NCBI GenBank assembly: GCA_021792095.1
Contig: JAJYVH010000001.1
Coordinates: 317,324-381,323, forward strand
Direction of reading: 5' to 3'
Source: Candidatus Micrarchaeota archaeon
Lineage (GTDB): Archaea > Micrarchaeota > Micrarchaeia > Micrarchaeales > CABMGC01
DNA length: 64,000 nucleotides
Every line of letters starts with the position of its first letter. Positions within the stretch are counted from its first letter, which is position 1. Shown here piece by piece: positions 2,576 through 60,009 of this stretch. A program made the translations under genes and the position numbers. Under the pieces are notes generated by a model. That model made no database searches. It saw only the letters and a program-made list of their open reading frames with translations, and had not been told where the DNA came from.

Positions 2576-2736
2576 AATTTCACGCGTGCCCTGTGGGTTT
2601 GTTATGGTATGCGCCTTTCGCCTTTTAAAGCATCCTGCTGTGCTTCGGGCCGGATCCAGATGCAAGCGCTAGGAGCGCAAGGTGTGTCCAAGCATATTAT
2701 AAAAAAACGTGTTCTGCGGGAGCAGAACCTGAAGCG

Positions 2737-2750
2737 CATCGCCCGAAGCA
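2737..2750 (+). repeat. att-like direct repeat, distal copy (CATCGCCCGAAGCA)
   Basis: Identical to 6655-6668. The extended alignment 2728-2750 vs 6646-6668 matches at 20/23 positions. Confidence 0.8.
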
Positions 2751-2894
2751 CAAGATGTGCGTGAGGCACATCTCCGACAAGAAGGATTTTTATACCGTCG
2801 ATTTTTAGCCTATTTTGGCATATAAGTGTGTATACCAGATATACATTCATTTAAATGAATTTACACGAGTGTATATCGTTTACATTCATGTATG

Positions 2895-3947
2895 TTATTT
2901 AAAGTATAGTGGGCGTGGGTGCTTGGGCGTGCGTGGTAGGTATGCGTATAGCACTATCGCACCCTTCTCAAGCCTTACGTTTATTCGTTTTATGGCATTT
3001 ACCTTTCCAGGAAGCTCGTTGTATATCTTGTTTCTAAGCGCCCTTGAAAAGGAATACTTGATGATGTCGTCGTCTTCGTAGCGCTCGGAGGTCTTCTTCA
3101 TTAAAGGTATTCTTTCCTTGTAGCTTATGCGTCCATTGGACTGCTTTAAGTTTAACACCTTCATGGCGTCTTTTGAGAGTTCCGCAGTATTTACACTGAT
3201 TTTTATTTTATGAGATGCAAGCTGAGGTTGTTTGAGAGGATGAGGCTTTCCATCCTTGAAGTTCATAAGTTTGTATTCAGTCTTCTTTTTGTTGTAGCTT
3301 GATCCCCAGTGCTCCAGTGACCAGATTGGCAGATGCTGGTCTAGCATGTATATCTTGCTCTTAATCCTGATTCCTGCTGCAACATGCCCAGGGGAGAAAG
3401 CAAAATATATCTCGTTCTTGACATACAGGTTTAAGAGCAGGCATGCTGTCAGCTTTGCATAATCTCTGCATACCCCTAGTTTATACTTTATAACCTTCTC
3501 AACAGGTAGGCTGGGCTGAAGGGAATACCAGACAAACCTGAATAATGTTACAACTTTGTTTTTATCTTCCAGGTTGAAGATATGCGTGTTCCATATTAGG
3601 AGCATGACGATTCCGATGAATGCTGACAAGAACATGCCAAATGTCAGGATAACTAGGTTCCTTATTAGATAGATATCTGCTGTTGAATAGATGGCAGGAT
3701 TAATCGGATGAAAAATTGTGAAGACAGCCCAGACGCAGAATATAAACAGGAACCCGAAGCTTATAATCAAAGACCAAGGAGCAAGGGGCCATCGCTCAGT
3801 CCAAAAGTATATGTTCTTGTCTTGCCACTCTAAAATATTAGTCAGTGTCTCTTTGTCTGAGTTACCTTTGAGCTTTTTGGCTAGGCGCATGACCTCCTTG
3901 TCCTTGAGTTCCTTTAAGGTTGGGTGATATCCAATATCCTTGTCCAT
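2895..3947 (-). CDS. transglutaminase-like (papain-fold Cys-His-Asp core) polytopic membrane protein
   Basis: 350-aa ORF in the AT-rich island. It has a central cluster of TM helices. GVCRDYAKLTACLLLN followed by PGHVAAGIRI resembles the transglutaminase-like core Cys and His. Confidence 0.55.
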   Translation of the reverse strand: MDKDIGYHPTLKELKDKEVMRLAKKLKGNSDKETLTNILEWQDKNIYFWTERWPLAPWSLIISFGFLFIFCVWAVFTIFHPINPAIYSTADIYLIRNLVILTFGMFLSAFIGIVMLLIWNTHIFNLEDKNKVVTLFRFVWYSLQPSLPVEKVIKYKLGVCRDYAKLTACLLLNLYVKNEIYFAFSPGHVAAGIRIKSKIYMLDQHLPIWSLEHWGSSYNKKKTEYKLMNFKDGKPHPLKQPQLASHKIKISVNTAELSKDAMKVLNLKQSNGRISYKERIPLMKKTSERYEDDDIIKYSFSRALRNKIYNELPGKVNAIKRINVRLEKGAIVLYAYLPRTPKHPRPLYFK

Positions 3948-4946
3948 TCATAACGCCCGTCTAATAAATTCGCATTTTTCTCCGAATACAGGATATCTAT
4001 CCATATCGACGAGGGTCTTTGAAATCTTACTAAACGATGTATCTATTTCTTTGTCCTTTTCTTTAATCTTACTAATTAAAGATTCGAGTTCTTTATTTTT
4101 GGCATTAGAAGGTTCCTTCTGTAAAGCCTCGAAGATCGCCGTATATTTCTCTGCCTTTTTCGGGTCGTTAGATATGGCTATCCCACCACTGAACGTGCCA
4201 TTATTTTTAGTTAAAGTGACTTGATATCCCTTTGCCATAGACTGAGTTTCTGGTATGCTCCAGTTCATTTCTTGAATTTTTATCTGTTGGCTCTTATCGA
4301 CGCCAGCCACATAACTAGAGAACAACGCATCAACAAACCAGAGATTTAATACATCTGTGCCTTTGTAGTTGTAATCGATTGTTGTTGACAGACCTGCTTT
4401 CTCGAGTTCTTTCATTGCAAGTTCTTCGATATACTTATGCAGGCCATTAAGCTGCTTCTCAAAATCGTTAACCGTTGTGCAGTAACTATTCCAGTCTCCT
4501 AACAGGTTTTTGTATTTCTCTCCTAGATGATTTTGTGTGAGGTCAGAGTATAGTATATCGTTATTGATATTTTCAGGAGCATACTGCGGTCTAGTAAAGT
4601 TTAATTCGTTTTTCTGGAACTGTGCGCCCATTAGCGGTATAATTTTATAATAAAACCCTTCATTTACACGTTTCCACTCGGCGATGAATTTATGCAGATC
4701 TTCAGAGTGCTTAATCTTAACATCCATAATCAAGGATTCGCTAGAGTAGTATATGCTGAAAGCCGCTATGATGAGCGCTGCCCAAGCAGGAATATCTGTG
4801 AACGGAATCAGACCTAGATACACAACTACTAGTAGTATGACAAAGGCGATAATGGCATAACTTATGTGTTTTGTTAAGAGTGTCATTGGTTTCTCACTTT
4901 TAAAGTAAAATGGTAGCCGCCATATTAATATGTGCACCCGAATCAT
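3948..4946 (-). CDS. hypothetical membrane-anchored protein (element cargo)
   Basis: 332-aa ORF with two N-terminal TM helices and a K/E-rich C-terminal coiled-coil-like tail. I recognise no family. Its ATG overlaps the PCNA stop (ATGA). An alternative start is at MTLLTK (4886). Confidence 0.5.
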   Translation of the reverse strand: MIRVHILIWRLPFYFKSEKPMTLLTKHISYAIIAFVILLVVVYLGLIPFTDIPAWAALIIAAFSIYYSSESLIMDVKIKHSEDLHKFIAEWKRVNEGFYYKIIPLMGAQFQKNELNFTRPQYAPENINNDILYSDLTQNHLGEKYKNLLGDWNSYCTTVNDFEKQLNGLHKYIEELAMKELEKAGLSTTIDYNYKGTDVLNLWFVDALFSSYVAGVDKSQQIKIQEMNWSIPETQSMAKGYQVTLTKNNGTFSGGIAISNDPKKAEKYTAIFEALQKEPSNAKNKELESLISKIKEKDKEIDTSFSKISKTLVDMDRYPVFGEKCEFIRRAL

Positions 4947-5700
4947 TCATCTTTGATGTATGGGGCTATGTAGTGTGCGAAGTCGACTCCGTCCATGTGA
5001 TAGCTGATTTTGAGGGGCTCTTTTGTAGTAAATTGGATGTTTACGGGCGTGTCCTTCTTCAGCACGGTGAGCATGCTTTCGATGAATCGGTGTTGTATCT
5101 AGAGGTTTGTTCCTGTGCGTCCGACTTCAGCTTTACCTCTATCCTATCGAATATCCTGCTGGACTCCTCTTCATCCCTTCCTATCGTTGTCAGCGTAAGA
5201 TTTTCCTTTGTTATTTGAAATGTTGTGTGTCCCTTTTTGCCTACCTTGATAAGTTCGTGGACGCTTTTCTGCAACAGCTTGCCATCAATCTCCGCTTCGG
5301 ACTTGAATGCAACACTCGGCTCCTTCTCCACATACCTTGTGACATTTTCTATTAGGACGCTGCCTACGTGTCCTCCGCATTTCAGATTTAATCTCCTTTT
5401 GCCGTCTTTTTCCAGCACGGTCGCAGTCAGTTCCTTGTCATTCGGCATACCTTCGATAAGCTTTGAAACCCTCTCCAAATCTATACCAAGCTCCTCAGGA
5501 CTGCCAAACCTGTACGAGATGAATTGCGCTTTTGGAATGCGAGCCACGATCATCGCTATTCCGCTTGACTCCATCTGCTTTATTTCGATGCCATTCATAT
5601 CGACCTTGATTAAGGCCTTCTTGTCCCTCCCATCATCTTTGAGGCTGACCGCTCCTTCGATCAGCTCCTTGAATGGCTGGGCGTTTATTACAAGGAACAC
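4943..5700 (-). pseudogene. PCNA-like DNA sliding clamp, interrupted by a 1-nt frameshift
   Basis: Frame A (5059-5700, GTG at 5698-5700) reads (M)FLVINAQPFKELIEGAVSLKDDG...IKVDMNGIEIKQMESSGIAMIVARIPKAQF...SRYNTD. A second frame (4943-~5086) reads FIESMLTVLKKDTPVNIQFTTKEPLKISYHMDGVDFAHYIAPYIKDE*. Together they match a full-length archaeal PCNA layout. Confidence 0.7.
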
Positions 5701-5713
5701 GGTGCCCGTATAA

Positions 5714-5787
5714 CTTATTCCATTCTCGGATTTTGAGGCTCTACTTATTCCATTTTGAGCAGGATTTTGGGCTGCGCTTATTCCATT
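5714..5787. repeat. three 11-bp direct repeats CTTATTCCATT (iteron/operator-like)
   Basis: Copies lie at 5714-5724, 5744-5754 and 5777-5787, spaced 30 and 33 bp apart. They sit between the integrase remnant and the PCNA GTG start. Confidence 0.7.
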
Positions 5788-5789
5788 TT

Positions 5790-6591
5790 TGGTAAGCTCG
5801 AAATAGCGGTTGGAGGTAGCTCCGTGGCCTATGACCCTAAGGAGCTTCCTTGCGGAGTCATCGGTCATAGGCTTATCCTTGCCCTTGCTACTGCCTATCT
5901 GCCTCTAGATTATCTGGTCGTCCCTTAAGTCCTTTATGGCATTCAGGTAGGTTACGGTCAGCGAGACTGACATAAGCAGCGGTACCTTCCTCCAGCCTGT
6001 CTTGCCCGTTATTGTGAGCTTCGCTGGCTGCACTGTCAGGTCTAAGTCTTTCTTCCTGACTCCCATTATCTCCCCTATCCTGCAGCCTGTTTCATATAAG
6101 AGGCTAAGGAAGAACTTGTCCCTGAGGTTTATGGCTGCGTCCAGCATCTTAACGATTTCCTGTTCCGTGAGTATGTTGTCTGGCATAAGGTTCTTTCTGG
6201 TTTTGTTCGTTATTTTCATCCAGGCTGTCACTGGGGGCTGATATACGCCCTCTCCCAACAGCTCCTTGTAGAAAACCTTCCAGACCGCCTGGAAATGGAG
6301 CCTGGATTCCATGCTATATGGCGGATCGCAGGAGTTTATGAACGCTGCGGCCTTTTCCATATCCCGTTTTGTTACCTCCTTTAGGTCTTTGTCATAACCT
6401 AGGGCCTCCATCAGCTTTAGAATGCCGTAAATATGCCGTATAACGCTACGTGGGTGCATATTCTTGGCCTTTAGCAGTGTTACGTGGTCTTCGATATAGC
6501 GCCTATTTTGCGCAATTATACGCACGTCAGCTAAAACCCTGTCATAGAGGCGGTTGGCCAGCCTTTGCCAATAGTCGATGTCGTTTGTCAT
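5790..6591 (-). pseudogene. tyrosine recombinase/integrase, decayed (in-frame TAG and missing catalytic region)
   Basis: ORF 5905-6591 carries the box I motif ETGCRIGEI and LTITGKTGWRKVPL, then stops at TAG. The same frame continues after 12 codons as ...DDSARKLLRVIGHGATSNRY, which resembles the LGH...Y C-terminal box. No HxxR box is present. Confidence 0.7.
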
Positions 6592-6654
6592 CGACGTGAC
6601 ATTGTGCCAGCGATGAATATTTATATCTTGTCCCGTAGGGGTCGTGCTTGAAGG

Positions 6655-6668
6655 CCATCGCCCGAAGC
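6655..6668 (+). repeat. att-like direct repeat, tRNA-proximal copy
   Basis: CATCGCCCGAAGCA. Positions 6658-6668 are the 3' end of tRNA-Asn. Confidence 0.8.
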
Positions 6669-6729
6669 AGGGATCGGACCTGCGACCTACTGGTTAACAG
6701 CCAGCCGCTCTACCGCTGAGCTATTCGGG
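6658..6729 (-). tRNA. tRNA-Asn(GTT)
   Basis: Manual cloverleaf: acceptor GCCCGAA/TTCGGGC, anticodon stem-loop GCTGG-CTGTTAA-CCAGT, T arm GCAGG-TCCGATC-CCTGC. No CCA is encoded. Confidence 0.9.
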
Positions 6730-6740
6730 CATGAAAAGGC

Positions 6741-7418
6741 TTAGCCTTTCAGGAAAGGAAATGGCTCTGCAAGATTAATTACCTTTGCGTATACGTAGGC
6801 GTGGCTCTCCATCGACCTCACGAAGCACAGCGAGTTGTCCTTGTAATCGTACCTCGCGAAGTTGCCCTCCGGCTTTGAGCCTAGCCTGGAGTAGTACACT
6901 GTAAGCTTGTCGTCGGCCAGCGCGCCAAGCGCGTTGAACGCCACTATTCTCTTCGCTCCCGCTCCTGTAGCGTACACGCACGCCATGCTCTCGTCCCTCA
7001 CCGATTTCCTGGCTATGGCCCCTACAAGGTCCTCGGGCTTCTCGACGTTTATCAGCACTATGCCTTTCTTGTCAGGTTCAGCGCTCTCGCGGTATGCGCT
7101 CAGGTCGGCGTGGACGACGTTTATGTAATGCTTGCCCGTTTGGTCTGCGCTGCCCACGAAGCGGGCGCTCTCCCCTGTTTCGCCGTTGCCCGGCTCGTAG
7201 AGCAGTATGGAGCCGTCGCCTCTGGATTCTACGTAGTACGCGAGCTGCGTATCGCCGATGTGCTCTCCGAGCGCGATGAGCCTGTTGCCAGATCTGTGCC
7301 TGTACATGATGAGGGGTTCAGCCGTGAAGTCGAAATTGCACGCATGCCTGCATATGTCCTCCAGCGACGCTGCCTTCACATAAAGCAGTCTGCCCTGTTC
7401 TTGCTTCTTCTTCGGCAT
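6741..7418 (-). CDS. hypothetical protein
   Basis: 225-aa ORF with host-like GC content. No motif recognised. Confidence 0.5.
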   Translation of the reverse strand: MPKKKQEQGRLLYVKAASLEDICRHACNFDFTAEPLIMYRHRSGNRLIALGEHIGDTQLAYYVESRGDGSILLYEPGNGETGESARFVGSADQTGKHYINVVHADLSAYRESAEPDKKGIVLINVEKPEDLVGAIARKSVRDESMACVYATGAGAKRIVAFNALGALADDKLTVYYSRLGSKPEGNFARYDYKDNSLCFVRSMESHAYVYAKVINLAEPFPFLKG

Positions 7419-8292: not shown

Positions 8293-8856
8293 TTAAAATG
8301 CCTTCTCTTTCCCGCTTTCGATGGCTGAGAAGAGCATGCCCGCGTCCCTCTTAAGCTCGCCGAGGCTTCCGGCGCCAGATATTATGTAGTCCGCGCTAGC
8401 GATCGCGCCCCTCACGCCCCACCTCTCCTCCTTCCTGTCTGTATCCCTCACGAACGCGGCAAGGCTTTTCGGCGCGTCGGGCCTGTTCCTCTTCCTAGTG
8501 CGCTCGTACCTTGTCTTGGCCGGGGCGACCACGGCCACAGTGACTATCCTCTCCCTGCTCCCCAGCCGCTTCTTTATGTAATCGAGCTCCTTCCTGCTGC
8601 GGATCCCGACGATTGCCATGTTCTCGTTCCTTCGCACGCTGATCCTGCCCAGCAGCAGCCTCGGCGTCACCACATCGCCGTACCTTCTCCTAAGCCTTTC
8701 TGAGAACGCCCTGTTGCTCTCCGGAGTTATCCTCACCCCGGCCTCATGCATCAGCTGCCTCACTATGTCCCCGAGCTCGTAGACGCTGTAGCCGCGCCTT
8801 TTCAGGACCCTGCCGACCGTGCTCTTTCCGGCGCCGGCGGTGCCTGTTATGCACAC
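8293..8856 (-). CDS. P-loop nucleotide kinase-like protein (UPF0200 / dephospho-CoA-kinase-like family)
   Basis: GTG start. Walker A motif ITGTAGAGKST. The downstream pattern IVGIRS...RYERTRKRNRPDAP...RDTDRKEE resembles the archaeal UPF0200 family as I recall it. Confidence 0.6.
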   Translation of the reverse strand: MCITGTAGAGKSTVGRVLKRRGYSVYELGDIVRQLMHEAGVRITPESNRAFSERLRRRYGDVVTPRLLLGRISVRRNENMAIVGIRSRKELDYIKKRLGSRERIVTVAVVAPAKTRYERTRKRNRPDAPKSLAAFVRDTDRKEERWGVRGAIASADYIISGAGSLGELKRDAGMLFSAIESGKEKAF

Positions 8857-8862
8857 CAGCAG

Positions 8863-9192
8863 TCAATGCACCCTGCTTCCCTGCTCTATCTCGCGGTCCG
8901 GCACCAGTATGGCTAGCGCGCCCTCGTTCTCGGCGGCGAGCAGCATGCCGTTGGACTCCACGTTGCCTATCAGCTTCGGTTCCAGGTTCACTATGCACGC
9001 TATCTTCTTCCCGAGCAGCTCCTCCTGCGTGTACCTGTCCCTTATTCCGGCGACTATCGTGCGCTCGCCAAGCTCCTTGCCCAGGTCCAGCCTGAGTATG
9101 TACATCGGGCTCCGCGCCTTCTCGTGCGCCTGGACGCCGATTATCTTCGCTATCCTTATGTCCATGTTTTTGAATTCTTCTATACTAACCAT
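8863..9192 (-). CDS. stand-alone tRNA-binding domain protein (Trbp111/CsaA/MetRS C-terminal-like OB fold)
   Basis: 109 aa: FKNMDIRIAKIIGVQAHEKARSPMYILRLDLG...IVAGIRDRY...LLGKKIACIVNLEPKLIGNVESNGMLLAA. Confidence 0.8.
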   Translation of the reverse strand: MVSIEEFKNMDIRIAKIIGVQAHEKARSPMYILRLDLGKELGERTIVAGIRDRYTQEELLGKKIACIVNLEPKLIGNVESNGMLLAAENEGALAILVPDREIEQGSRVH

Positions 9193-9235
9193 ATTATCGG
9201 CTTACAATCGTATGTAAGCCTTATTAGTGTTGGTC

Positions 9236-9775
9236 ATGCGCGCATTCATAGCCGTAGACATTCCGGATGACATAAAGGTGAGGCTGCTCGCTGCTGCCGC
9301 CGACCTGCCCGGCGACGGCATCGTCCCGGTAAAAAAAGAGGCGATGCACATAACGCTCCATTTCCTCGGCGAGCTGGACGCGAAGGGCGTGGCATCGGCG
9401 AAGGAGGCGCTGCAGTGCTTGGAGACAAGGCCGTTCGAAGCGGCTCTCGCCGGCGTCTCGTGCTTCAATCCCGACTTCATAAAAATAGTATTCGCGAAGG
9501 TCTCGCAGGGAGCCGAGACGTTCTCCGCGGCGTACGCCTCCCTTGCCGAGGAGCTCTCCGGCCGCGGACTCGCTCTGGAGGGCAGGGCCTACACGCCCCA
9601 CGCGACTCTGGCGAGGGTGAAGTATGTGGCTGACAGGGATGCGCTGCTGGGAGCCATAAGCAGGCTCGACGGCACAGGGTTTGGCTCCTTCCATGTGGGT
9701 TCCATGGCCCTGAAGGAGAGCGTGCTCACCAGACAGGGGCCCGTGTACAACACGCTATACGAACTCCAGCTCTGA
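9236..9775 (+). CDS. thpR: RNA 2',3'-cyclic phosphodiesterase (2H phosphoesterase, ThpR/LigT)
   Basis: Two HxT motifs (HITLHF and HATLAR) at the expected spacing. ATG at 9236 lies within ORF 9227-9775. Confidence 0.85.
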   Translation: MRAFIAVDIPDDIKVRLLAAAADLPGDGIVPVKKEAMHITLHFLGELDAKGVASAKEALQCLETRPFEAALAGVSCFNPDFIKIVFAKVSQGAETFSAAYASLAEELSGRGLALEGRAYTPHATLARVKYVADRDALLGAISRLDGTGFGSFHVGSMALKESVLTRQGPVYNTLYELQL

Positions 9776-10342
9776 CCTCCTCTTCTCGAAATCCTCCGGC
9801 CTTTCCGCATTGGCGAGCTCGTGCGGCCTGTAGATGCGGTCCAGCAGCAGCAGGTCGTAGCACATGCCCTGCCTCGTGTCGAACGCTATGTGCCTCATTT
9901 CGTTCCCGAACAGGTCCACCTCCACGAGCTGCGCCTTCAGCAACGAGTGCAGCCTGCCGACGCATGCCAGCAGGCGGGCGTCGTTTTCCTGCAGGCCTAT
10001 GGCGCGCATCTCCAGGTTGCCCATCCTGCGCTTCCTGACGGTTTCGGCAATCCTCTTCTCCATAGCGCCGCCCAGCTCCTTGCTGGGCCTGAGCAGCACC
10101 GCCTGCGACGTGTTCACGTCGTATATAGTCAAGAGCATGTCTCTGGTTATGCCCTCGGCGAGCACATAGCGGCCTGCCTCGCCGTAGCCCACGGCTTTAA
10201 CCTGGTTCGTCTCTATACGTGTCGAGTAAGCGGCTATGCGCGACAGCGACGTATGGATGCGCTCCCTTGACGCGAGCCGCAGCCTGGACTTGCCGAAATC
10301 CTGGCTGCCCGCCATGCTGCTGTACTCGTTGAACAGCTCCAC
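9755..10342 (-). CDS. hypothetical protein
   Basis: 195-aa ORF with a GTG start. Its convergent 21-nt overlap with thpR is tolerated. No motif recognised. Confidence 0.45.
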   Translation of the reverse strand: MELFNEYSSMAGSQDFGKSRLRLASRERIHTSLSRIAAYSTRIETNQVKAVGYGEAGRYVLAEGITRDMLLTIYDVNTSQAVLLRPSKELGGAMEKRIAETVRKRRMGNLEMRAIGLQENDARLLACVGRLHSLLKAQLVEVDLFGNEMRHIAFDTRQGMCYDLLLLDRIYRPHELANAERPEDFEKRRSELEFV

Positions 10343-10418
10343 GCTCCCACATCGCTAGTTTTATTAAATACGCCAGCGCATGTATAAATAAGGCTGTTGC
10401 CTTATTCCTCCTGATTGG

Positions 10419-10988
10419 ATGAAGGTTAGCGTAATCGAGAACTCACCAATGGCAATGCGCGCCGACATAAGTGGCGTGGACTACAGCTTCGCCAACGCGC
10501 TGCGCAGAGCTGCCACTGCCCTTGTGGAGTGCTTCGCAGTGGACGTGGTCACGTTCTACGAGAACACGAGCGCGATGTTCGACGAGTACATAGCTGAGCG
10601 CATAGGCCTGGTTCCGCTCCTGACGCCGAAAGGCTATACGGAGAAGGACGAGATAGTGTTCTCCCTGGAGGGCGAGGGCCCGGTCACGCTCTACTCCAAG
10701 GACATGAAAAGCAGCGACAAGGAGGTCAAGGTGGCCAACGGCAGCATACCTATAATAAAGCTGGGCGGCGGCCAGAGGCTGCGCGCAGACTGCAAGGCGA
10801 TACTGGGCAACGGCAAGAGGAGCGCCAAGTTCCAGCCCGGGATAGTTAGCTACAAGACAGCGAACGGCAAGGACTTCGAGTTCTACACAGAGTCATTCGG
10901 CCAGATGCCGGCGAACGAGATAATGAAGAGGGCGCTGGGTATAATAAGTTCTGGCTTGAAAGATGCCTACAAGGAGCTGAAGAAGTAG
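10419..10988 (+). CDS. rpoD: DNA-directed RNA polymerase subunit D (Rpo3)
   Basis: 189 aa with the ANALRR motif of alpha-like subunits. It sits in the conserved position upstream of tRNA-Leu and uL13. Confidence 0.85.
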   Translation: MKVSVIENSPMAMRADISGVDYSFANALRRAATALVECFAVDVVTFYENTSAMFDEYIAERIGLVPLLTPKGYTEKDEIVFSLEGEGPVTLYSKDMKSSDKEVKVANGSIPIIKLGGGQRLRADCKAILGNGKRSAKFQPGIVSYKTANGKDFEFYTESFGQMPANEIMKRALGIISSGLKDAYKELKK

Positions 10989-12474: not shown

Positions 12475-13089
12475 ATGGCTAAGGAAACGCTCATAGAAGA
12501 GACAGAGTATTCGTACTCGCACATACAGTCGGGCACCATGATACGCATGCCGGGCATGAAGAGGTTCATAAGCTCGAGGCGCGGCGACGGGCTGTACCTG
12601 CTTAAGCTCGACGTGATCGACGAAAGGATAAAGGCCGCGGCAAGGATGCTCGCCGCATACGACAGCAAGGGCGTGGTGGTCACAGCTTCCAGGATATACG
12701 CGATAACTCCGGCGAAGAAGTTCGCCGAGCTCACGGGCACGCGCCTGGTGGAGGGCAGGGTGATGCCGGGCACTTTCACGAACCCGAACAGGAAGGATTT
12801 CACCGAGCCGGAGCTCATACTGGTGAGCGACACCAGGAACGAGAGACAGGCGGTGAGGGAGGCCAGCAAGACGAACGTGCCCATAATAGCGCTCTGCGAC
12901 ACAGACAACTGGATAAAGTACGTCGACCTGGTGATACCGTGCAACAACAAGAGCAGGCGCTCGCTCGCGCTCGTCTACTGGCTGCTAGCCAGGGAGTACC
13001 TGAAGGAGAAAGGCCTGATAAAGGGCAACGACGAGTTCAAGCCCAGCATCTCCGACTTCGAGGCGAAGGTAGAGATAAGGATGAAGTAG
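12475..13089 (+). CDS. rps2: 30S ribosomal protein uS2
   Basis: 204 aa: ...EPELILVSDTRNERQAVREASKTNVPIIALCDTDN... Confidence 0.95.
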   Translation: MAKETLIEETEYSYSHIQSGTMIRMPGMKRFISSRRGDGLYLLKLDVIDERIKAAARMLAAYDSKGVVVTASRIYAITPAKKFAELTGTRLVEGRVMPGTFTNPNRKDFTEPELILVSDTRNERQAVREASKTNVPIIALCDTDNWIKYVDLVIPCNNKSRRSLALVYWLLAREYLKEKGLIKGNDEFKPSISDFEAKVEIRMK

Positions 13090-21936: not shown

Positions 21937-22002
21937 GAAGGCATCGCCACTAACAGTAGAAACAGTTATCGTAAGTTTTGGATAGACCTTTGCTCTGTCT
22001 CC

Positions 22003-22317
22003 CTAATCTTCAAATATCTCTCCCACCAGCTCATCTCTTGTCGTATTGTAGGGACTACTAAAAGTGCCATTAGAAGGGTCTTTTAGTGCTGGTTCTAAAA
22101 CAGGTCTATATTTTTTGAGACAGTGTTTGCAAAGATGGAGTTCAATATGCTGTCCGTCTGCAAAATGCATATCTGCAAACAAGCCGTTCTTTCCTTTGTG
22201 TTCATCAGGCCTTCCGCATAAAGAGCATTTGTAGGTTTTCTTGAGTATTCTATCATAGAGATTGATGCTTGTGCTACCTATAGTTAATGCACCAGCTATT
22301 TCCCCAAGCAGGCTCAT
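22003..22317 (-). CDS. hypothetical small zinc-ribbon-like protein
   Basis: 104 aa with CSLCGRP...HLCKHC (CxxC...CxxC). Lies inside the AT-rich insertion. Confidence 0.45.
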   Translation of the reverse strand: MSLLGEIAGALTIGSTSINLYDRILKKTYKCSLCGRPDEHKGKNGLFADMHFADGQHIELHLCKHCLKKYRPVLEPALKDPSNGTFSSPYNTTRDELVGEIFED

Positions 22318-22413
22318 AACAACCTAAAATAAAACTACACAAAGGCTAATAAAACTATAGAAAATCAATTAAACTACAAAGCCGTCGTTAGACATAGCTT
22401 TAAATAGTGGTGA

Positions 22414-22758
22414 ATGTCTAATTCCTCTGCAGTCTTTAAAGCTGCAGAGAAGTATGAAATGTCAGACGAAGATGAAACAGGCGGATATGGAAGAAGAGGC
22501 GGAGGAGACAGGGGAGACAGAGGAGAGAGAAGGGGCATGAACCCTAACTATTTCCTTCCCAAGCCCGTGAAGGTCGGGGATGTTCTGGAGGTTACCATAG
22601 AAGGGTCTGCTTCCAGGGGAGACGGCATAGCAAAGAAGGACGGTTTCGTCATCTTTGTGAAGGGCGCGAAGCCTGGCGACAAGCTGACAGTCAGGGTGAC
22701 TGATGTCAGGACAAGGTTCGCCATAGGAGAGCCCACAAGCGAAGCCCCGAGCGCCTAG
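22414..22758 (+). CDS. TRAM domain-containing (RNA-binding OB) protein with an acidic/RG-rich N-terminus
   Basis: KPVKVGDVLEVTIEGSASRGDGIAKKDGFVIFVKGAKPGDKLTVRVTDVRTRFAIGE. A possible alternative start is at 22459. Confidence 0.8.
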   Translation: MSNSSAVFKAAEKYEMSDEDETGGYGRRGGGDRGDRGERRGMNPNYFLPKPVKVGDVLEVTIEGSASRGDGIAKKDGFVIFVKGAKPGDKLTVRVTDVRTRFAIGEPTSEAPSA

Positions 22759-22894
22759 AAAGCAGAGCACTTTTCCTTATGCGGAAAGTGGTTAGCCTTG
22801 GCTTTGCGCGCGGTTGCGTGACGCACGCGCCATGCGCGCGTTATGGCTGTGGATGACGCCTAGGCCGGGCTGCGGGCCTTGACCGCCTTTATGC

Positions 22895-24433
22895 TCAGGT
22901 GCCCGTAGCCGTGGCGTTCAGGGACGCAGACGCGCCTTCCTGCCCCTGCACAGATATCTTGTAGCTGCCGCTGGCGACAGGGGCGAGCACTATGTGCCCC
23001 TGTGCCATCTGTATTGTGCCGTTGAAGCTCAGCGTTGCAGACTGGCCTGCGCCGAGGCTCAAGCCCTGCCCCTCGAAATCGGCCTCCCCCGAAGGCACGT
23101 ACATTGTGCCGTTGCCCCGCACCAGGAATACTACCATCCTGTAGCTGTGCTGCTCGCTGCCGAACTGCTGCGTCATGTTTGCGAACTCGTTGTTTATTCG
23201 CGAAGTTATGCGCGAGGCGTTGATGTTGTTGCATATGGATGCGTTCAGCGCTATCCCCGCGTTCTCGGCTATGTCGAGCGCGTCGCTTTCGGCCCCGAAC
23301 TGGCCGGATGCGTTCACGCCCCCTCCGGCGCGCGTGCTTATGAGCAGGTTGCCGTTGTCAGTTGACGTGTTGTACTGGCCGCCCAGTGACGTGTTGCCCT
23401 CGGTCTCCGCGAAAACCTGGGGCCTGACGTGCATCATCGATCCCGATGCGCCCCCGCCTCCCGCCCTGATCATAGCGCCATTCATGTCCCCTATCTTGAT
23501 GTTTGTGTAGTTGCCCGAGTTCTCGCCTTCTGGCATGCGTATGTTTGTGTCGTTTATTATGTTGGAGGCGTTGAAGCCGCTGCCGTGGTTCAGCTGCAGG
23601 CAGAAGTTGTACATGTGGGATGCCATTGCCTGCGTGAGCTGCACCTCCCTGTCGCGTAGCGCTGTCAGGTTGAGCTTCACGCTTTCGTTGCCGAAGAGCG
23701 CCACGTTCCTGAGCACGACGCTCCTGTTGGCATTGTTCCTCACTGTTATGGAGATACTGGTCGCGTTGCCCGACGATACTGATAGCGAGGCGCCTGTTAT
23801 GCTTATGTTCGCTGCGGTGGCCTCGAGCTCAAGCCTGTGTCTTTCGGTGAGCGCCACCCTGGCCCCAAGGTTGAGCGTTGTAGAGTTGCTTGCCCCGGCC
23901 ACCACCACTCCCTTCAGCGAAGGTACCATCACGAACACTGTGCTCGTGTTTGTTATTATGCTGGCCACAACAGGCGACAGCTCCAGAAGTATGCTCGAGT
24001 TGCTGCCCAGCGTTGTGCCGCCGTTTATGTGCGCTGTTATCTGGCTGCTCGGCACAGTGACGTTGTATGTCGTGCCGTTTACTGTTATGCTCGCCGATGT
24101 GACGTTGAACCTGACAAGGTTGACGCTGGCGTTTGAAGGCACAGCGGCTGTGCCTATCGTCTGGCTCAGGTTCAGCAGTTCGAGGAGATTCACGCTTCCG
24201 GAGCCGCTTGCCTGGATCCAGCCCGAAGCGTTGTTAGCATTAGAGAGATGCACCTGCAGCGACGAGTAGTTTATTATGAGCGCATGAGTGCCGTTTGGGA
24301 CCTGGGGCGGATCGGTGGGCTGCAGTGCCAGCATGCCGCTCGCGCCGTAAGCGTGGGCCGATTCCAAATACAGGGCTGCTGCAAGTACTACTATTACCGC
24401 TATTATTCCGAGTGCTGCTATTTTGCCTACCAT
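22895..24433 (-). CDS. large exported sequon-rich surface protein (DUF4382-like N-terminal region; S-layer-like candidate)
   Basis: 512 aa with an N-terminal TM/signal and very many NxS/T sequons. It is S/T/N-rich and predicted to be beta-rich. Confidence 0.5.
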   Translation of the reverse strand: MVGKIAALGIIAVIVVLAAALYLESAHAYGASGMLALQPTDPPQVPNGTHALIINYSSLQVHLSNANNASGWIQASGSGSVNLLELLNLSQTIGTAAVPSNASVNLVRFNVTSASITVNGTTYNVTVPSSQITAHINGGTTLGSNSSILLELSPVVASIITNTSTVFVMVPSLKGVVVAGASNSTTLNLGARVALTERHRLELEATAANISITGASLSVSSGNATSISITVRNNANRSVVLRNVALFGNESVKLNLTALRDREVQLTQAMASHMYNFCLQLNHGSGFNASNIINDTNIRMPEGENSGNYTNIKIGDMNGAMIRAGGGGASGSMMHVRPQVFAETEGNTSLGGQYNTSTDNGNLLISTRAGGGVNASGQFGAESDALDIAENAGIALNASICNNINASRITSRINNEFANMTQQFGSEQHSYRMVVFLVRGNGTMYVPSGEADFEGQGLSLGAGQSATLSFNGTIQMAQGHIVLAPVASGSYKISVQGQEGASASLNATATGT

Positions 24434-58829: not shown

Positions 58830-59414
58830 ATGGTCATGGAGGAAGATGAGCTGCTAAAGAAGTACAACACGCTCTACCTAGAGATACTGATGCGCTACAA
58901 GGATGAGATAGAGAAAGGCGAGACGCTCTACGTCGCGGAGCTGCCCAAGCTCGTCACGCCCCAGGACGAGTCCGTGCTCGCCGTTGTGAACAACATAAAG
59001 AGCAGCTTCGCCGCTTATTCGTTAGATGACAACTTCTACGACGCCGCTATGAAGGCCCAAGCCTACATCAACACCTCGGTGTCCGGCATCTCGGTCCCGG
59101 TGCAGTTCTGGCTTACGCCCAGCGAGGTCATAAGGATGGGGGCCGGCGACGTCTTCGACAAGACGGTGCTGTTGTGCAGCATTCTGATAGGCCTCGGCAA
59201 CCTCACGGCAAGGATAGTCACCGTAGTGAAGGGGTCGGGCAGCGAATCGGCAGTGTACTGCGAGTTCCACAGCAAGCTGCTGCTCCTCAGGGCCGACGGC
59301 CGGATGGGCGAGTTCGACGGGAAGCAGGGGCTGCTGGCTGCAATGGGCTTCTCAGACGACCCCGGCACTACTGCCTACGAGTTCAACGACAAGATGTACA
59401 GCAGCATTGCCTGA
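58830..59414 (+). CDS. hypothetical protein (transglutaminase-like fold lacking the catalytic Cys); its 3' end is remodelled by a cassette insertion
   Basis: Internal ATG of ORF 58488-59414. GAGDVFDKTVLLCSILIGLGN resembles a transglutaminase core with Cys replaced by Val/Phe. An ancestral-looking C-terminus copy lies at 60014-60057. Confidence 0.5.
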   Translation: MVMEEDELLKKYNTLYLEILMRYKDEIEKGETLYVAELPKLVTPQDESVLAVVNNIKSSFAAYSLDDNFYDAAMKAQAYINTSVSGISVPVQFWLTPSEVIRMGAGDVFDKTVLLCSILIGLGNLTARIVTVVKGSGSESAVYCEFHSKLLLLRADGRMGEFDGKQGLLAAMGFSDDPGTTAYEFNDKMYSSIA

Positions 59415-59506
59415 AGGAACTATAATCATATTATGTACATAAATGATACACAAATGAAACATATTTAAATCACCCTACTGTAATGTAATAGCAATGGTGA
59501 GATTTA

Positions 59507-59749
59507 GTGAACGTTAATCTAAGGGGCAGAGCCAGGCAGATCCTTGAGGTAATGGTCAAAGAGGGGTATGCCAACACAAGATCAGAGGCCGTAAGACTTG
59601 CAATAATTAATTTTGGAGACAAACATGCTGAAGACCTCTTGGTGGAGAAGAAACTCGATAAGATTGACGCACTGATAAAAGGAGGGAAAAGGAAGCTATT
59701 GGATTCTCATGATGCTCTGGGTGAATACGCTAAATATCTCAAGGGATAG
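59507..59749 (+). CDS. ribbon-helix-helix (CopG/ParD-like) antitoxin
   Basis: 80 aa with a GTG start. VNLRGRARQILEVMVKEGYANTRSEAVRLAIINF shows the RHH pattern. Confidence 0.6.
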   Translation: MNVNLRGRARQILEVMVKEGYANTRSEAVRLAIINFGDKHAEDLLVEKKLDKIDALIKGGKRKLLDSHDALGEYAKYLKG

Positions 59750-59751
59750 GT

Positions 59752-60009
59752 ACGTACACCGCAGAGTTCGACCAAGGATGGCCAGAGTATTTTCAGTCGT
59801 TAGACAAAGGTATCAGAGCAAGAATCGCGAAGAAAATAGAGAAGATCCTGATGCATCCTGAAAAGAGGCATCTGATGAGGAGCTCGTTCTTCGTTGACGA
59901 AGTAGGGCAGTACAGACTCGTTTACAGGATCTTCGAAGAAAATAAAGTCAGGTTCTATTTTGTCGGGGCTCATAAAGAGTATGAGAAGTGGTACAAGCAA
60001 GGATTCTGA
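59752..60009 (+). CDS. RelE/ParE-family toxin (no canonical start; ACG at the Met position)
   Basis: Not in the ORF track. My translation: (ACG)YTAEFDQGWPEYFQSLDKGIRARIAKKIEKILMHPEKRHLMRSSFFVDEVGQYRLVYRIFEENKVRFYFVGAHKEYEKWYKQGF*. It begins 2 nt after the antitoxin stop. Confidence 0.6.
   Translation, partial: TYTAEFDQGWPEYFQSLDKGIRARIAKKIEKILMHPEKRHLMRSSFFVDEVGQYRLVYRIFEENKVRFYFVGAHKEYEKWYKQGF

Follow-up and report, generated by a model that had tools for sequence, protein, structure and literature searches.

The segment spanning positions 2728-6669 of the 64,000-nucleotide (nt) stretch of Candidatus Micrarchaeota DNA analyzed here (contig JAJYVH010000001.1, positions 317,324 to 381,323; hereafter the window) is very probably a cryptic integrated mobile element of this DPANN archaeon, which has decayed from a form of about 13 kb. 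Direct repeats delimit the segment, one of them overlapping the 3' end of tRNA-Asn(GTT), whose gene is intact, and the segment as such has the layout of a site-specific integrative element residing at a tRNA gene. Its integrase gene (int) is reduced to a stump joined in frame to the remnant of a second gene, which encodes a sliding clamp (PCNA) preceded by a domain of the winged helix-turn-helix type (wHTH) and is called wHTH-PCNA in what follows; the element is a deletion derivative, and not merely a copy inactivated by point mutations. Its features and those of its target, including the attachment (att) cores and the open reading frames (ORFs), are given below in window coordinates.

2728-2750, minus strand: distal att core (attR), TGCTTCGGGCGATGCGCTTCAGG, perfectly matching both the family consensus and unoccupied attB sites
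2751-2945, minus strand: distal arm of ~200 bp, conserved, AT-rich and containing palindromes (blastn and alignment)
2895-3947, minus strand: ORF350, intact DUF553 transglutaminase-like membrane protein (PF04473, E = 1.3e-21)
3948-4946, minus strand: ORF332, intact membrane/coiled-coil protein of no family, 74% identical to the gene after wHTH-PCNA in relatives L021/L024
4943-5823, minus strand: wHTH-PCNA remnant with the wing of the wHTH, the linker and the full PCNA domain (PF00705 match; three-frame translation)
5714-5792, minus strand: three AATGGAATAAG repeats, spaced by 33/30 bp, which code for the NGIS x3 linker that connects wHTH to PCNA
5824-5837, minus strand: deletion junction with the microhomology GGGTCATAGGCCAC, 13-14 nt (nucleotide comparison with the intact int of L020/L021 and the wHTH-PCNA gene of L021)
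5824-6591, minus strand: integrase stump, codons 1-256 of a tyrosine recombinase of 408 amino acids (aa) (PF00589; comparison with the intact P0012, P0014 and L021 int)
6647-6669, minus strand: tRNA-proximal att core (attL), TGCTTCGGGCGATGGCCTTCAAG, with the exact 14-mer at 6656-6669 and 20/23 matches to the distal core
6658-6731, minus strand: tRNA-Asn(GTT), the integration target (ARAGORN); 6659-6730, minus strand, in Rfam (RF00005, 70 bits)

The target site, the lesions and the cargo

The 14-mer CATCGCCCGAAGCA occurs in the 64-kb window only at the two ends of the element, at 2737-2750 and 6656-6669, and no further copy appears when one mismatch is allowed; the shuffle expectation is 0.06, and at least two copies were present in 0 of 100 shuffles. 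The original prediction had recognized the exact repeat and placed its left copy properly, but had set the right copy at 6655-6668, one base too low. Likewise, the extended match of 20 out of 23 positions stands, with the partner of 2728-2750 now located at 6647-6669 instead of 6646-6668. It is this 23-nt sequence, rather than the 14-mer, that represents the att core. As predicted, its right copy overlaps the 3' end of tRNA-Asn(GTT), taking in 11-12 nt at the end of the tRNA and 12 nt of its trailer, and an Rfam scan of the region returned the tRNA as its sole match. The interior (2751-6646) has a GC content of 43.2% against 58.3% in the remainder of the window and constitutes the deepest GC trough of the latter, in line with the AT-rich interior and GC-rich flanks noted beforehand. 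Two milder dips (~49% vs ~58%) lie at window positions 22001-23000 and 59001-60000.

All four interior genes (the integrase fragment, the PCNA_N ORF, ORF332 and ORF350) were correctly described as co-oriented, all being on the minus strand, and profile searches assigned them to PF00589, PCNA_N, no family and DUF553, respectively. The int ATG at 6591 is separated by 64 bp from the tRNA-proximal repeat, in practical agreement with the ~65 bp foreseen. The fragment scores 37.2 bits against PF00589 (cut-off 27.1), covering only profile positions 2-75 of 172, and it also matches the PHROG 1 integrase (E = 1e-17); the integrases of the intact relatives match PF00589 as well. The complete catalytic set R...K...H-x-x-R...H/W...Y is found in the intact 408-aa integrases P0012, P0014 and P0022, which contain R171, H267-x-x-R270, W292 and Y301/302 followed by a C-terminal CxxC...CxxC zinc ribbon. 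The set is incomplete in the window copy: the stump retains R171 and the TGKTGWRKVPL hairpin with its lysine, its coding sequence ends at H256, and H267-x-x-R270, W292, Y301/302 and the zinc ribbon are gone. In addition, codon 229 (W229stop, TGG>TAG) is a nonsense codon at 5905-5907. Because its catalytic residues are deleted, the window int is a pseudogene of a PF00589 family member. By comparison, codon 229 is TGG in L014, a 2-kb contig of the same host strain, whose int reads, undeleted, ...RVIGYRAGITKPINPHAFR.

In frame 0 of the window, the int reading frame meets the TAG at 5905-5907 and, beyond it, leads without a change of frame into the PCNA ORF. The parents of this fused ORF were found by searching with the 540-codon ORF of the sister allele L009. 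Intact int reads ...RKLLRVIGH followed by RAGITKPINPHAFR, and wHTH-PCNA reads ...MEKRGWVIGH followed by GATSNRYFEL, whereas the window reads ...RKLLRVIGHGATSNRYFEL; hence int codon 256 is joined in frame to wHTH-PCNA codon 53 at a position where both parents read VIGH. What had been listed as the clamp gene is a wHTH-PCNA remnant fused in frame to the integrase stump. The deletion, which would amount to ~7.6 kb if the ancestor was L021-like, removed the HxxR, W and Y residues and the zinc ribbon of the integrase together with the promoter and the helix-turn-helix of the clamp gene. The PCNA part matches PCNA_N with E = 4e-5 and carries a -1 frameshift (a 1-nt deletion) at ~5086-5088, by which the last 47 PCNA codons (4943-5086) are shifted to another frame; with one base restored, a full-length PCNA results that can be aligned to P0013 and P0016. 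The expected damage to both genes is thus real, comprising W229stop and the truncation in int and the -1 frameshift in PCNA. Independent assemblies of the same strain (99-100% nucleotide identity) display the identical 228/269/43/332/350-aa ORF pattern with the same breaks, and these are therefore true lesions and not assembly errors.

Two further int-PCNA deletions were encountered among the relatives. The L009 allele has a single open 540-codon ORF (8828-10450) spanning int and wHTH-PCNA, and since its junction, QIGSSK joined to RMEKRGW, is unlike that of the window, it arose by an independent deletion. L009 is 100% identical to the window in the host part up to ~6418, then 90%, and then 50-80% identical, which is the pattern of a homologous-recombination mosaic. 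In L004, a third and larger deletion, out of frame, has brought the PCNA tail (window position 5013) up to int (window position 6401). The ratios of nonsynonymous to synonymous substitution rates (dN/dS, calculated by NG86) are 0.06-0.09 for the N-terminal part of int and 0.16-0.22 for the window PCNA versus three relatives; such low values imply that the lesions are recent relative to the divergence of these sequences.

The two remaining genes are intact and under purifying selection. ORF332 (dN/dS 0.07) probably starts at the ATG at 4886, giving 312 aa as in its L021 homologue; with this start, it would be clear of the PCNA stop at 4943. ORF350 (dN/dS 0.16) shares 85% identity with the L025 gene located after wHTH-PCNA. 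Searches of Pfam, PHROGs and PADLOC assigned no replication, virion or known defence function to ORF332, ORF350 or the unknown genes of the relatives.

Beyond the cargo, the distal core is adjoined by the hairpin AGATGTGC-N5-GCACATCT at 2754-2774, for which one compensatory variant is seen in L006, and the fold of the distal arm DNA has a z-score of -4.0. The core sequence TGCTTCGGGCGATGCGCTTCAGG is common to all distal ends of the family, where it is preceded by the hairpin and the arm. The arm and the 5' end of int are 83-87% identical between the window and L003/L004, whereas the host flanking genes are only ~63% identical; the element family has therefore spread horizontally after its hosts diverged. 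As a separate observation, the arm/core junction (2741-2752) recurs 90 nt away in a perfect inverted copy, TGTGCTTCGGGC, at window positions 2639-2650 (plus strand) of the host flank, upstream of the FKBP gene. This copy contains the arm-specific TG and not the CC of the tRNA, is missing from all other loci checked, and might be left over from an earlier rearrangement or serve as an integrase-binding site.

Intact relatives and unoccupied sites at tRNA-Asn

The form from which the window element would have decayed can be seen in L021/L022/L023, where the tRNA-Asn gene (1678-1751) and cores at 1740 and 14875 delimit an element of 13.1 kb. Its order is core, int408, then a 381-aa gene, hsdS/M/R and a 142-aa ribbon-helix-helix-like gene (these on the opposite strand), and further wHTH-PCNA, the 312-aa ORF332 homologue (74%), 623-aa and 231-aa genes and the second core. 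In L025, hsdRMS cargo is accompanied by wHTH-PCNA and, directly after it, by the DUF553 gene (85% to ORF350), while the L044 cargo includes type I restriction-modification (R-M), GmrSD and DUF4365 genes. The same core bounds related elements with different cargo in L003, L004-L006, L021-L023, L025 and L029, so that instead of relatives sharing the same genes at this locus with no repeat, we find different genes at the same tRNA-Asn enclosed by the same core. In L029, on a Micrarchaeota-like contig, a 3.2-kb island without an integrase (3938-7207; AbiEii, a DUF1905/OmdA protein and Fic) lies between two cores at tRNA-Asn. Elsewhere, att cores follow one another downstream of a single tRNA-Asn (at 12881, 13725, 14062 and 14530 in L004/L006, and at 4130 and 5119 in L003), one such copy including a 42-nt tRNA 3' half, which indicates tandem accretion of several elements at this site. 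The tRNA-Asn gene is a reused integration hot spot. An integrase-like stretch downstream of the tRNA in L002 turned out to be spurious, the ORF coding for a P-loop protein on the other strand.

Sites without an element were recovered in distant relatives (flank protein 24-35% identical), in which tRNA-Asn and the core are directly followed by host genes: in L030 these are PPDK/PEP synthase and aminoacyl-tRNA synthetase genes, and in L033 they are AHSA1, Na/H exchanger and ABC transporter genes, with the post-core sequence TTCTACTCCCAC of L033 resembling TTCTGCTCCCGC of the window. An empty site of the kind expected was thus recovered in these distant relatives only (L030, L033), and none came from close relatives or the same strain. 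The flanking 225-aa protein has counterparts of 83-88% identity in two species genomes labelled Candidatus Micrarchaeota (scan of genome contigs), and the L001/L002 sequence diverges from the window right after the tRNA. A metagenome scan for the T-arm plus core plus trailer gave 0 matches, and a relaxed core pattern retrieved five loci, all from distant relatives. The predicted junctions are tRNA-Asn...TGCTTCGGGCGATGCGCTTCAGGTTCTGCTCCCGC for attB and ...GCACATCTTGTGCTTCGGGCGATGGCCTTCAAGCACGACC... for attP. As to the trailer itself, the 12-nt ATGCGCTTCAGG after tRNA-Asn is kept at the distant unoccupied sites (L030 6441-6463; L033 2968-2990) and is missing from L001/L002 (~10760), the two closest species genomes.

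Exact-protein look-ups of two host flank genes found the same strain in many samples, in all of which either the site was occupied or the contigs broke off at the att copies. The same-strain short-read contigs break at both copies, and L042/L043 start in a variant arm joined to the same host flank. Such breaks and variant arms indicate that the site is polymorphic, and are no proof of excision.

The wHTH-PCNA fusion gene

The intact parent of the clamp remnant is a 345-aa protein composed of an N-terminal MarR/HTH_5-type winged helix, the NGIS x3 linker and a full PCNA domain. Positions 100-345 of the family profile align with residues 10-249 of P. furiosus PCNA (E = 2.7e-21, profile versus PDB sequences), and judging from such alignments the family is a full-length two-domain PCNA homologue (PF00705/PF02747). 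An AlphaFold model built on a 13-sequence alignment reached a pLDDT (predicted local distance difference test) score of 53, too poor to confirm the fold, and was not used. Only two cluster representatives of the full-length fusion were found among 1.84 billion representative proteins, and the nearest PCNAs in phage and plasmid protein collections are 23-24% identical and unfused. Other N-terminally extended PCNA homologues are numerous in metagenomic proteins, with extensions of up to 697 aa (P0035, P0039, P0048, P0066, P0085, P0149 and others), and fusion of further domains to PCNA may be a broader theme.

Two stretches of this gene are conserved at the level of DNA. First, three exact AATGGAATAAG repeats occur in every family member and nowhere else in the elements (L021 10193-10266; also L025, L044, L048 and L009), and third-codon-position identity is 0.8-0.9 over the wing and linker versus 0.4-0.6 over the PCNA body, even where amino-acid identity is equally high. 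Synonymous sites frozen over the AATGGAATAAG stretch and the wing suggest a cis-acting DNA element within the gene, or else a recombination block. Second, the promoter region upstream of wHTH-PCNA, which the deletion removed from the window copy, is conserved as TGACATTCTATAAA(A/T)AC(A/G)TTGTCCGCC in L021 (9959-10000), L025, L044 and L048, and contains an inverted repeat flanking the TATA box; this palindrome is a likely operator through which the wHTH domain would regulate its own gene. Jointly, the repeats, the frozen synonymous sites and the promoter palindrome suggest cis-acting sites and autoregulation, and they agree with the notion of a clamp that is directed to the DNA of the element.

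What could such a protein do? wHTH-PCNA is the sole replication-related gene of these elements, and we put forward, tentatively and as one possibility only, that it serves as the replication/maintenance module of a hitherto undescribed, Rep-less family of Micrarchaeota integrative elements. In that event, the winged helix would bind in a sequence-specific manner and tether the sliding clamp to the element's own DNA, where the clamp would recruit the host replisome. Candidate binding sites would be the promoter palindrome TGACATTCTATAAAAACATTGTCC and the three AATGGAATAAG repeats, which lie about three helical turns apart in the element's own gene. The puzzle of how stand-alone viral PCNAs tell their own DNA from that of the host has been raised before (PMC4889955); if our proposal is true, it would answer for one family how a PCNA of a mobile element makes this distinction. 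The copy of the gene in the window is dead.

Proposed history, alternatives and significance

The history that we envisage begins with the element's tyrosine recombinase, which would have recombined the 23-bp attP core with an identical attB, made of the last 11 nt of tRNA-Asn and 12 nt of trailer, thereby leaving direct repeats at both ends and the tRNA intact. The ancestor of ~13 kb would have comprised int408 next to the tRNA, a defence block on the opposite strand, the 345-aa wHTH-PCNA gene, one to three variable genes, the 200-bp arm and the core. Decay would then have set in with a deletion between two short, similar VIGH-coding sequences, which would have cost the element ~7.6 kb and brought int codon 256 next to wHTH-PCNA codon 53; W229stop and the -1 frameshift in PCNA would have come after the deletion. 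At present, the element is devoid of the recombinase active site and hence capable of neither self-excision nor integration on its own, but it retains its two intact cargo genes, which are still under purifying selection.

Several points weigh against this interpretation. First, replication and virion genes were not identified in any of the relatives. Virion and packaging genes were found neither in the window nor in the intact relatives (Pfam, PHROGs, PADLOC), although many ORFs there belong to no family and could be distant homologues, and Rep, primase, helicase and VirB/VirD4 had no matches in either (Pfam). Second, the ~7.6-kb figure presumes an ancestor like L021, and cargo differs among the relatives. 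Third, the L009 allele is a mosaic, and variation at the site is thus not all due to site-specific recombination. Fourth, close relatives yielded no empty site; the contigs of L001 and L002 end ~470 bp past the tRNA. Fifth, neither a circular nor an attP junction turned up; IMG/VR has no match to the arm plus core pattern and likewise contains no relative of the integrase or of wHTH-PCNA.

The original description of the element as immobilized holds with respect to self-movement, given that HxxR, W and Y are gone; with the att cores and the arm intact, mobilization in trans is conceivable. The remnant would then be a non-autonomous element for which a related element, present in the same cell or population, still supplies the intact 408-aa integrase for excision or re-integration. 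This could account for the perfect distal core, the 20/23 proximal core and the intact arm, for alleles with intact integrases in the same host strain and samples (L014, L020, L023), and for the polymorphism of the site, where same-strain contigs break at both att copies and L042/L043 have a variant arm. We nevertheless consider it unlikely. Neither an empty-site nor a circular-junction sequence could be recovered from the strain, tRNA sequence shared between species also explains why contigs break inside the tRNA, and alleles may be replaced by homologous recombination, as exemplified by L009. Furthermore, only one tRNA-Asn site per genome was seen, such that the helper would have to be in tandem or extrachromosomal.

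It is also quite improbable that the locus is kept by selection because the in-frame Int(N)-PCNA fusion or the two cargo genes serve the host. Although two independent deletions (window and L009) are in frame, with the 540-codon ORF of L009 fully open, the window fusion carries a nonsense codon and a frameshift, both of them present in all same-strain assemblies, and the int-PCNA deletion of L004 is out of frame; two in-frame events out of three fit chance. ORF332 and ORF350 are intact with the low dN/dS values given above, but low dN/dS mostly reflects selection that preceded the lesions.

The tRNA-targeting integrative element recognized at the outset therefore stands, all three checks that the original prediction had set for its own refutation having turned out in its favor, while its designation as a plasmid or provirus does not, for no virion or Rep genes were found and "cryptic integrated element" (CIE) is the better fitting term. 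CIEs have been described from Thaumarchaeota as elements of 2.6-98 kb with XerC/D-like integrases, tRNA targets, short repeats, wHTH proteins and R-M cargo (Krupovic et al. 2019, PMC6563490). The elements described here resemble them in the tyrosine integrase beside its tRNA target, the short direct repeats, a size within the 2.6-98 kb range, the wHTH proteins, the type I R-M cargo and the lack of recognizable virion, conjugation and Rep genes. They differ in their host, a Micrarchaeota (DPANN) archaeon, in their hallmark wHTH-PCNA (PCNA has 0 mentions in PMC6563490) and, in the case of the window copy, in being a deletion derivative without a functional integrase.

With regard to the integrase, the att core is not part of the int gene but is situated 64 bp upstream of its ATG, and the family integrase is therefore of the non-suicidal, pNOB8-like ("type II") kind (PMC8371274) and not of the SSV type. 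With the former it shares this position of the core, an unsplit gene and a tRNA 3'-end target; it differs from it by at most 35% identity to any annotated archaeal integrase, by the C-terminal CxxC...CxxC zinc ribbon ("zinc" has 0 mentions in PMC8371274) and, in the window copy, by the loss of the catalytic C-terminal half. SSV-type elements do leave an N-terminal integrase fragment at one end of an integrated archaeal element, as seen here, but the window fragment starts from an ATG of its own that is located outside the att core, it terminates at an internal deletion junction and not at att, and it has no int(C) counterpart at the other end. A split, suicidal integrase was thus rejected, the integrated relatives with intact genes keeping an undivided 408-aa int. 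Like the stand-alone PCNAs of viruses and plasmids (Kazlauskas et al. 2016, PMC4889955), wHTH-PCNA is a full-length PCNA homologue encoded by a mobile element without a DNA polymerase; unlike them, it is fused to an N-terminal MarR/HTH_5-type winged helix via the NGIS x3 linker.

That the element is a remnant of a provirus or plasmid of a known archaeal family (pleolipovirus-like or pNOB8/pT26-2-like), and not of a separate family, is the least probable alternative and can be largely set aside: the best annotated matches of the family integrase are indeed those of Archaeoglobi pleolipoviruses and haloarchaeal plasmids, but they are 22-35% identical and concern the integrase only, no capsid, spike, Rep or conjugation gene was detected in the window or the intact relatives by Pfam, PHROGs and PADLOC, IMG/VR holds no relative of wHTH-PCNA, integrase or arm plus core, and the phage and plasmid collections, covered by protein searches only, contain no close relative of wHTH-PCNA and only distant integrases (at most 35% identity).

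Elements of this kind, that is, cryptic integrated elements, are well known; no earlier description appears to exist of the family, of its 23-bp att site or of its hallmark protein wHTH-PCNA. Literature searches naming Micrarchaeota turned up no paper on the integrated elements of the phylum, with the closest candidates (PMC13573593 and PMC12647753) unassessed.

Taken by itself, the window element is an ordinary, dead integrated element. The locus, in turn, opens a little-known mobilome with a defined 23-bp att core at tRNA-Asn and a backbone of int, defence cargo, wHTH-PCNA and arm. Its members form a decay series that leads from intact 13-kb elements through in-frame int::PCNA fusions and the 3.9-kb stump to integrase-less islands, and that illustrates the wearing down of elements and the shuffling of defence genes at a single hot spot. 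Finally, wHTH-PCNA provides a testable idea of how an element-encoded clamp may be steered to the DNA of the element itself.

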